A stretch of 10,514 bases of DNA from a virus (Duplodnaviria > Heunggongvirae > Uroviricota > Caudoviricetes): IMG/VR virus record IMGVR_UViG_2698536533_000007. The stretch is one strand, 5' to 3'. How positions within the stretch are numbered: the stretch's first letter is position 1; every line of letters begins with the position of its first letter. Position numbers: made by a program. This document shows positions 3,001-6,000 of the stretch, in pieces.

Positions 3001-6000
3001 TTTTACCAGAGAGCAGTTAATAGCTCACGCAGAGGAGACTATTGAAGCACAGAGACTGTGCATACCGGGCACAATCGACCATGACATCATCCGCACATAT
3101 AAGATGGATATTGCTGTTCTGGAAATCGCACTGGTATCGCTGGCAGCAGAGCCAGCCGGTAAATTGCATGAATACAAACCAGTGGGATATCAGCGTCTGG
3201 TCGATGAGTTAACCATGCTGGTAAAGCAGTTAACCTGGCAACTGAGGAAAGCGAAGCCAGACTGCAAATTACCGGATAAGGCGATGAGTTATCTGGAGCG
3301 GAACGGACTGATAAGCGTGGAGGATATTTTACGATGACCTGGCCTGAAGCATTAACAACGGTAGGAATTGCGATGGCGGTGGCGCTGGTGGTGTATTCGA
3401 TTTGCCGCTGGGGATAAAAACGGTTTGCGGGAAAAGGAGAGTTAAGTAGAATTGCAGCGGGTGCTTGAGGCTATCTGTCTCAGGCATGAACACCAAAAGG
3501 CAGATAGAGAAAAGCCCCAGTTAACATTACGCGTCCGGCAAGACGCTTAACATTAATCTGAGGCCAATTTCATGCTTTGCACATGTAGGTTAGCCTCTTA
3601 CATGCCGAAAGGCAAGGAGAAGCAGGCTATGAAGCAGCAAAAGGCGATGTTAATCGCCCTGATCGTCATCTGTTTAACCGTCATAGTGACGGCACTGGTA
3701 ACGAGGAAAGACCTCTGTGAGGTACGAATCCGAACCGGCCAGACGGAGGTCGCTGTCTTCACAGCTTACGAACCTGAGGAGTAAGNNNNNNNNNNNNNNN
3801 NNNNNNNNNNNNNNNNNNNNNNNNNNNNNNNNNNNNNNNNNNNNNNNNNNNNNNNNNNNNNNNNNNNNNNNNNNNNNNNNNNNNNNNNNNNNNNNNNNNN
3901 NNNNNNNNNNNNNNNNNNNNNNNNNNNNNNNNNNNNNNNNNNNNNNNNNNNNNNNNNNNNNNNNNNNNNNNNNNNNNNNNNNNNNNNNNNNNNNNNNNNN
4001 NNNNNNNNNNNNNNNNNNNNNNNNNNNNNNNNNNNNNNNNNNNNNNNNNNNNNNNNNNNNNNNNNAACGCGTTTGAAGTTTTAGATGGTGCCGGAATAGA
4101 ATCAAAAATACTTAAGTAGCGCGCAGGGAGAAGAGGGATGGACCCCGAACAGGGGAGAGCTATTTATCTGGAAGGATTCTGAAGATGAAAATCGAAGAAT
4201 TGCGTGAAATTTTTAGTGAAAATGGCCTCTATGCTGNNNNNNNNNNNNNNNNNNNNNNNNNNNNNNNNNNNNNNNNNNNNNNNNNNNNNNNNNNNNNNNN
4301 NNNNNNNNNNNNNNNNNNNNNNNNNNNNNNNNNNNNNNNNNNNNNNNNNNNNNNNNNNNNNNNNNNNNNNNNNNNNNNNNNNNNNNNNNNNNNNNNNNNN
4401 NNNNNNNNNNNNNNNNNNNNNNNNNNNNNNNNNNNNNNNNNNNNNNNNNNNNNNNNNNNNNNNNNNNNNNNNNNNNNNNNNNNNNNNNNNNNNNNNNNNN
4501 NNNNNNNNNNNCAAACCTCTTCCGGATTACTTCTCCCGGCGACGCCGGAGAGTTGCGATTTTCTGCATCAAATCAAAATAGGTGAGTGGATACACGCAGA
4601 CTTTAAGCGTGTGTGTAACTACGCATTCCACAAGCGTTTTTTCAAACTCCTGCAACTGGGTTTCGATTACTGGACTCCGGTCGGTGGGGCGATCACGCCT
4701 CGCGAACGAAAACTGGTGTCCGGTTTCGTTGATTACNNNNNNNNNNNNNNNNNNNNNNNNNNNNNNNNNNNNNNNNNNNNNNNNNNNNNNNNNNNNNNNN
4801 NNNNNNNNNNNNNNNNNNNNNNNNNNNNNNNNNNNNNNNNNNNNNNNNNNNNNNNNNNNNNNNNNNNNNNNNNNNNNNNNNNNNNNNNNNNNNNNNNNNN
4901 NNNNNNNNNNNNNNNNNNNNNNNNNNNNNNNNNNNNNNNNNNNNNNNNNNNNNNNNNNNNNNNNNNNNNNNNNNNNNNNNNNNNNNNNNNNNNNNNNNNN
5001 NNNNNNNNNNNNAATGCACCCACACTTAACCCGCTTCGGCGGGTTTTTGTTTTTATTTTCAACGCGTTTGAAGTTTTAGATGGTGCCGGAATAGAATCAA
5101 AAATACTTAAGTAGCGCGCAGGGAGAAGAGGGATGGACCCCGAACAGGGGAGTGCTATTTATCTGGAAGGATTCTGTTGATGAAAATCGAAGAATTACGT
5201 GAAATTTTTAGTGAAGATGGCCTCTATACTGTGCGCGTTGAGAATGGCGCTATTGTCAGCCACTGCCTTCCAGACTACACAATTCTGATAATTCAGCCGT
5301 CTTTGCCAGCAGGCACGGGCGGCGCTCTCACGCATTTAAATCTGATTGGTACCAGCATCCCCCATGCACTGAAGAACAGGCCGAATGGCTCATTCAGTGT
5401 TACCGCAGGCGCGGATGCGAGGTTAAAAAAGCCCTTAGCCTCGACTACCGTCACTGGATAATCTCCGTCAGGCTCCCTTACTCCGAACGGCCAACGCGTC
5501 CGTCCCGCACATTCCAGCAACGGATCTGGAGGTAATGTGCGGGTATTACTTCGACCTGTTCTGGTACCGGAACTCGGTCTGGTTATCGTTAAGCCAGGCC
5601 GTGAATCAATGTCAGCATTCCATAACGGCAGAATACTGGTGGAGCCGGAACCAAAAAGCATGCGTAATCTGCCGTCCGGGGTCGTTCCTGCCGCTCGCCA
5701 GCCGCTGGTGGAAGACAAAACATTGCTGCCGTTTTTCAGTAACGCACGGGTGATTCGTGCTGCTGGTGGTGCTGGTGCATTGTCTGACTGGCTGTTGCGC
5801 CATATTAAATCCTGCCAGTGGCCACACGGCGATTATCATCACAGCGAAACCGTCATTCACCGTTATGGTACCGGCGCAATGGTGTTGTGCTGGCACTGCG
5901 ACAACCAGCTGCGTGACCAGACATCCGAATCACTCGAGCAACTTGCTCATCAAAACCTGTCAGCATGGATGATTGACGTCATCGGTCACGCAATAAGCGG

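Follow-up and report, generated by a model that had tools for sequence, protein, structure and literature searches.

The window analyzed here is the whole 10,514-nucleotide stretch of the IMG/VR virus record IMGVR_UViG_2698536533_000007 (Caudoviricetes), and our subject is the TAA codon at 5459–5461 that separates two open reading frames (ORFs) of frame 2, a short upstream ORF beginning MKIEELREIF and a long downstream ORF with an HNH motif. We consider it highly probable that this region belongs to a Qin/Stx-type lambdoid prophage and corresponds to its hok-rem-orf92-DUF968(ydfU)-rusA-Q segment, present as the Shigella sonnei allele with a 250-bp deletion and with an independent start for the DUF968 gene; orf92 is the name used here for a conserved gene encoding 92 amino acids. 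The gene identities, the deletion, the reading frames, and the conserved arrangement of stop and start were observed directly, and nothing that we found contradicts the deletion. The original prediction, which was made from the sequence of the window, had offered three accounts of the TAA: a nonsense-interrupted fusion gene, programmed read-through, or a small gene followed by a long untranslated linker. Judged from the homologues, the observation is real but trivial, the TAA being an ordinary gene boundary in an S. sonnei-type lambdoid prophage. The genes and signals described below for 5028–6963 lie on the plus strand.

A 250-bp deletion joins rem to orf92 out of frame

The upstream ORF runs from ATG 5180 to TAA 5459–5461 and encodes 93 amino acids (its start is given as TTG 5177 in the ORF list). 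As had been predicted, its frame reopens behind the TAA, and we read no further stop in frame 2 from 5462 to the run of N that begins at 6501. In a megablast comparison with complete E. coli genomes, the region turned up in thousands of prophages, and the top hits were all split into two parts that together extended ∼250 bp beyond the length of the query. When the window was aligned to intact loci, a single gap appeared between 5267 and 5268, with exactly 250 bp missing. The missing segment comprises rem codons 30–86, the spacer between rem and orf92, and the ribosome-binding site (RBS), the ATG, and the first 11 nt of orf92. A loss of 250 bp, which is not divisible by 3, shifts the reading frame, and rem codons 1–29 therefore run out of frame into orf92, from codon 5 on. 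The alternative that the 250 bp represents an insertion or a mobile element in the other genomes was considered and rejected; the segment carries conserved coding sequence of rem and of the start of orf92, K-12 included.

Two gene remnants meet at this junction. The 5′ remnant of rem, which encodes an antirepressor of DicA, occupies 5180–5267 (codons 1–29 and the first base of codon 30) and was aligned to the intact gene of 86 amino acids in contigs L001 and L009 and to K-12 Rem (b1561, 83 amino acids). The chimeric ORF (5180–5461) therefore consists of these 29 codons, then 64 codons of orf92 read out of frame, and then the TAA, which is an out-of-frame stop within the codons TGG ATA ATC (Trp-Ile-Ile) of orf92. 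In frame 1, codons 5–92 of orf92 and its own stop, TAA 5533–5535, are retained (5268–5535); this remnant is 100% identical to the intact allele and belongs to PHROG 1212, and it contains no in-frame ATG, GTG, or TTG, codons 1–4 and the RBS having been deleted. The original prediction had mentioned in passing that frame 1 is open from 5242 to 5535. The sequence bears this out, and the aside was the real lead, since on the comparative evidence frame 1 is the ancestral coding frame. The peptide SPSGSLTPNGQRVRPAHSSNGSGGN, part of a stretch (5462–5640) that had been described as low-complexity, is merely the continued wrong-frame translation of the conserved orf92.

We also weighed whether the gap could be an assembly error, a sequencing error, or an artifact of the preparation of the window. 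Several features fit such an origin: the gap is exactly 250 bp long and blunt, two of the N-masks of the window are also exactly 250 long, the window has a second clean gap relative to its relatives (143 nt at 254|255), and the junction was found neither in 5,426 complete E. coli genomes nor in species-representative genomes. However, six independent IMG/VR contigs carry the identical junction, as do S. sonnei assemblies, 4.8-Mb contigs among them, and the exact 93-amino acid product has been deposited as an S. sonnei hypothetical protein (e.g. FORC11_1990) under several S. sonnei names and was seen on 679 contigs. With this distribution, an artifact is extremely unlikely.

The flanks of the junction are 100% identical between the intact (L007, L008, L009, and L017) and the deleted (L004, L006, L011, L013, L014, and L016) alleles. 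Across 5013–6500, the window has a 100% ungapped match in six IMG/VR contigs, and four others show 100% identical flanks plus the 250 bp; the S. sonnei assemblies, including those 4.8-Mb contigs, match the window at ∼100% identity from 5013 to 10050. Intact alleles of rem and orf92 are also in circulation under S. sonnei and E. coli names. We take the deletion to be a natural and recent allele. In some assemblies (L100 and L101), a gene range is recorded that extends up to the base before the DUF968 start, which fits annotators treating the region as a single damaged gene. The finding is thus one of ordinary prophage decay, with the chimeric product already in public records; the S. sonnei “hypothetical protein” of 93 amino acids is a chimera that the deletion created from Rem, the antirepressor of DicA, and its gene deserves annotation as a pseudogene.

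The stop codon and the downstream start are conserved among relatives

We examined 80 IMG/VR loci encoding the 92-amino acid protein, in 77 of which the downstream ORF was readable, and computed substitution patterns among 43 distinct sequences. Annotated relatives carry hokD, the gene of 86 amino acids, orf92, DUF968, rusA, and Q as separate genes, and phage records name the three genes at issue rem, hypothetical protein, and ydfU. The TAA that ends orf92 is present in all 80 loci and its ATG in 78, both exceptions being the deleted allele, and the context TGGAGGTAAYGTG around the stop and the following GTG is invariant in 80/80. In each of the 77 readable loci and in K-12, a GTG-initiated DUF968 gene begins one base past the orf92 stop, and the out-of-frame TAA recurs 75 nt ahead of that GTG.

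These comparisons bear directly on the proposal that the MKIEELREIF ORF and the DUF968 ORF are one protein split by TAA 5459–5461, either as a nonsense-interrupted fusion or as a programmed stop-codon read-through. The two ORFs do share a frame, GTG 5537 lying in frame 2 like the upstream ORF, and a single stop stands between them. That relation exists only because of the 250-bp deletion, however, and a sense codon was never seen at the position of the TAA, which is TAA in 77/77 readable relatives and in K-12. A single in-frame stop with an open frame behind it occurs in every relative examined, and there the genes are plainly separate. A stop-free run of 25 codons is expected by chance with P ∼0.31 at the base composition of the window, so the open stretch itself is unremarkable.

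The pattern of variation likewise followed the separate genes. Variable sites at codon positions 1/2/3 numbered 23/23/55 across 5269–5532 and 4/3/14 across 5462–5536, both of which fit frame 1, and 28/21/43 across 5537–5700, which fits frame 2. Within 5269–5532, we counted 606 synonymous and 367 non-synonymous differences in frame 1, compared with 44 synonymous and 892 non-synonymous differences in frame 2. The sequence flanking the TAA therefore evolves as frame-1 coding sequence; over 5269–5700, codon periodicity follows frame 1 as far as 5536 and then switches to frame 2, with no frame-2 coding pattern across the TAA. The profile of the DUF968 family, moreover, begins at the GTG. Taken together, these results leave a fusion or a read-through with virtually no chance of being correct: in the homologues the genes are separate, the stop is conserved, and the downstream gene has a start of its own. 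The third account, a small gene followed by a long untranslated linker, is literally true of this allele and had missed the cause, which is the 250-bp deletion. More generally, a fusion or a read-through should be called from an open frame behind an in-frame stop only after the other frames and the homologues have been checked; beyond such annotation hygiene, the case has little importance.

The same arrangement was found in the cryptic prophage Qin of K-12, where the order of hokD, rem, the 92-amino acid ORF, DUF968, and Q is that of the window, the DUF968 gene has the same GTG in the TGGAGGTAAYGTG context, and the out-of-frame TAA stands at the same distance upstream, 75 nt. In contrast to the window, in which the 250-bp deletion fuses the two genes, K-12 Qin has a full rem (83 amino acids) and an intact 92-amino acid ORF; it lacks rusA between ydfU and Q, whereas the window has rusA. 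The MG1655 ORF (MARNAKYYNSDNSPV...RIWR) is unannotated. It lies in the 346-nt “gap” between rem and ydfU (NC_000913.3 1644305–1644650, minus strand; L019) and stops 1 nt before the GTG of ydfU, so that the MG1655 annotation omits a conserved gene that directly adjoins ydfU and appears to be coupled with it.

In other strains, PGAP labels this ORF a hypothetical protein, and one phage record (ON470583.1) labels it “toxin to Rem.” The match of the 92-amino acid protein to PHROG 1212 ends at the C terminus of the protein, and no match for it was found in a PDB sequence search, in Pfam, or in NCBIfam. A PADLOC search gave no match for any of the three proteins (Rem, the 92-amino acid protein, and DUF968).

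DUF968 has its own initiation site

The downstream gene encodes a His-Me-finger (HNH) protein of the DUF968/YdfU family, the visible part of which spans 5537–6500 (PF06147, E = 2.8e-53). The original prediction had found no convincing RBS or start for this ORF, which proved to be wrong. GTG 5537 follows TAA 5533–5535 by one base in the TGGAGGTAAYGTG context, behind a Shine-Dalgarno (SD) sequence GGAGG (5528–5532) with 4-nt spacing that is kept in 80/80 relatives. Positions 1–334 of the PHROG 96 profile align to DUF968 residues 1–349, so that the alignment opens with the very first residue encoded from GTG 5537; the annotation of K-12 ydfU likewise begins at this GTG. As judged from this agreement of signals, profile, and annotation, DUF968 initiates independently at GTG 5537.

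The length of more than 400 amino acids that had been ascribed to the downstream ORF is an artifact of translating the N-mask at 6501–6750. The complete gene has 352 codons and ends inside the mask (length taken from contig L011). Here, 250 N stand in place of 263 real bases, which comprise the DUF968 C terminus, its TAA, and the ATG and 5′ part of rusA; in relatives with 100% identical flanks, the 263 bases hold the DUF968 stop and then directly the rusA ATG. An ORF of 5537–6757 exists only if the 250 N are read as codons, and ORFs spanning N-masks are not real. The 3′ part of rusA follows at 6751–6963, its stop (6961–6963) overlapping the ATG (6960) of the Q antiterminator gene.

The DUF968/DUF1364 group of His-Me-finger (HNH) nucleases, with YdfU and YbcO, has been described previously (NAR 2017, PMC5714182), and the context of the DUF968 family is also treated elsewhere (PMC4118853). 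The gene in the window resembles that group in its PF06147 domain, its CxxC and DDPHH motifs, and its rusA and Q neighbors, as described in the former paper (PMC5714182). It differs at one residue: nucleotides 6470–6496 encode CRKCRNELH, whereas in 70/70 other relatives with an identifiable motif, His occupies the place of the Arg. In the relatives, this C-terminal motif reads C-x-x-[C/H]-H-[NSD]-E-[LF]-H, and the Arg change is shared by S. sonnei-type alleles with and without the deletion. The change may impair the metal site of the nuclease.

A hairpin over the DUF968 start points to possible translational coupling

The last codons of orf92 can pair with the GGA of the SD sequence and the GTG of DUF968 in a hairpin at 5504–5543 (−20.9 kcal/mol; z = −3.67), and 0/200 shuffled sequences folded as well. 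The hairpin is kept in 12 of the 13 sequence variants found among 112 copies and is weakened in one; the pairing-preserving changes are G-U only. In translationally coupled gene pairs, the upstream ORF unmasks a start that is occluded by a hairpin. The present pair resembles them in having stop and start 1 nt apart, an SD sequence that lies within the upstream gene, and a stable hairpin that covers this sequence together with the start; it differs in that coupling is read from the layout and in that the upstream partner can no longer be translated in the window. The layout and the hairpin suggest an obligatory coupling of DUF968 translation to orf92, which would be broken by the deletion.

We propose the following course of events. 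The ancestral layout comprised three separate genes, with the orf92 stop (TAA 5533–5535) one base before the GTG of DUF968, and in intact prophages, ribosomes finishing orf92 would open the hairpin and thereby couple DUF968 translation. A recent, blunt deletion of 250 bp then took away the final two-thirds of rem, the spacer, and from orf92 the RBS and the start. By this event, rem became a chimera of 93 amino acids whose nonsense tail runs to the first stop met out of frame, TAA 5459–5461, and orf92 a startless remnant, the tail of which, 75 nt from the TAA at 5461 to GTG 5537, is untranslated. The open DUF968 frame across these 75 nt is a by-product of the orf92 sequence. Ribosomes on the deleted allele would halt at 5461, 43 nt before the hairpin, leaving DUF968 to unaided initiation; the gene may be expressed less because no ribosome now unwinds the hairpin.

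Several points weigh against parts of this account. The junction showed no microhomology that would point to a mechanism for the deletion. The 4-nt spacing between the SD sequence and the start is short. Compensatory pairs are absent from the hairpin, the conservation of which could simply reflect its two coding sequences. DUF968 has its own SD sequence and may be translated normally. A stronger form of the proposal, in which the hairpin makes DUF968 translation depend on orf92, a single deletion silences rem, orf92, and the HNH nuclease at once, and any residual coupling comes only from chance −1 slippage at A AAA AAG, appears doubtful to us.

The heptamer A AAA AAG (5425–5431, zero frame of the chimeric ORF) is the basis of a further, speculative explanation, namely that low-level −1 frameshifting carries ribosomes from the chimera into the orf92 frame and on to TAA 5533–5535, which would yield a Rem(1–29)-linker-Orf92 C-terminal hybrid and restore DUF968 coupling. 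The sequence is a canonical X XXY YYZ heptamer in the right register, the −1 frame is that of orf92, and the stop of frame 1 adjoins both the GTG of DUF968 and the hairpin; A AAA AAG is also the dnaX slippery sequence, which is shift-prone in E. coli. However, no stimulatory structure was detected downstream of the heptamer (fold z = +0.8), and the nearest SD-like GAGG lies just 2 nt upstream instead of ∼10 nt. The A-run corresponds to ancestral Lys-Lys codons and is unconserved, K-12 having AAGAAAG and L001 TAGGAAAG. The heptamer is in register only through the deletion, which means that it was not under selection. Functional frameshifting at 5425–5431 is thus unlikely, and this explanation as a whole very unlikely, compared with a deletion that left DUF968 to its own start.

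The rem remnant and the Rem family

In K-12, experiments have established Rem as an antirepressor, which lifts the repression of the Qin dicBF operon by DicA (J Bacteriol 2023, PMC10448788). The first 29 codons in the window are homologous to that protein; by contrast, only about one-third of the protein is left here, and the 64 residues behind it are unrelated. The match to PHROG 340, the Rem family, covers residues 1–29 of the chimera and not the full length of 83–86 amino acids. The remnant carries a precomputed Pfam tag (PF27490:Rem), and the local copies of Pfam and NCBIfam gave no match for Rem or orf92. As predicted from this truncation, the antirepressor activity of the chimera has very probably been lost, and the loss of rem may help to lock the prophage in a cryptic state.

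Full-length Rem (L001/L009, 86 amino acids) matches PHROG 340 in two stretches, the better of which places residues 30–85 on profile positions 14–69, and residues 1–29 of the chimera align to profile positions 13–41. The overlapping profile positions hint at a partial internal duplication or a mosaic joint in this rem allele, exactly at the left breakpoint of the deletion.

Upstream of the remnant, an intrinsic terminator (stem-loop and T-run) at 5028–5055 follows a masked hok-type gene and aligns downstream of the annotated hokD in L001. A σ70-like promoter, TTGAAG-18-TAGAAT, lies ahead of rem at 5068–5097 as a consensus match only; the same sequence stands at 4066–4109, ahead of a first copy of rem. 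This upstream copy starts at 4186 (MKIEELREIFSENGLYA...) and is then masked. In contig L117, which matches exactly the window sequence visible beside the mask, it is a Rem-like gene of 95 amino acids.

Other features of the window

The first cassette upstream (3459–4236 and 4512–4736) contains a sok RNA (Rfam, 3459–3634), a hokD-type gene (3630–3785), the first rem copy at 4186, and then a DUF1367-like gene. In L117, the DUF1367-like gene has the same RBS and ATGGC start context as orf92, which suggests a recombination module boundary at that site. Besides sok, the only Rfam match in the window was the small RNA STnc100 at 9741–9930 (123.6 bits), downstream of the prophage methyltransferase region; no Rfam match was found in 5013–5700.

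Eight runs of N were counted, at 2464–2741, 3786–4065, 4237–4511, 4737–5012, 6501–6750, 8821–9086, 9350–9632, and 10051–10300. The masks do not keep length: 250 N replace 263 nt at 6501–6750, and 275 N replace the 298 nt found in L117 at 4237–4511. Because the masks change length, any ORF or frame relation that is read across one of them is meaningless.

At 254|255, the window lacks ∼141–143 nt of a dnaC-like replication gene, a segment that is present in 6/6 related contigs, L117 among them. Relative to L117, whose sequence matches the window at 100% on either side, the gap measures 143 nt and is not a multiple of 3; it is probably another inactivating deletion.

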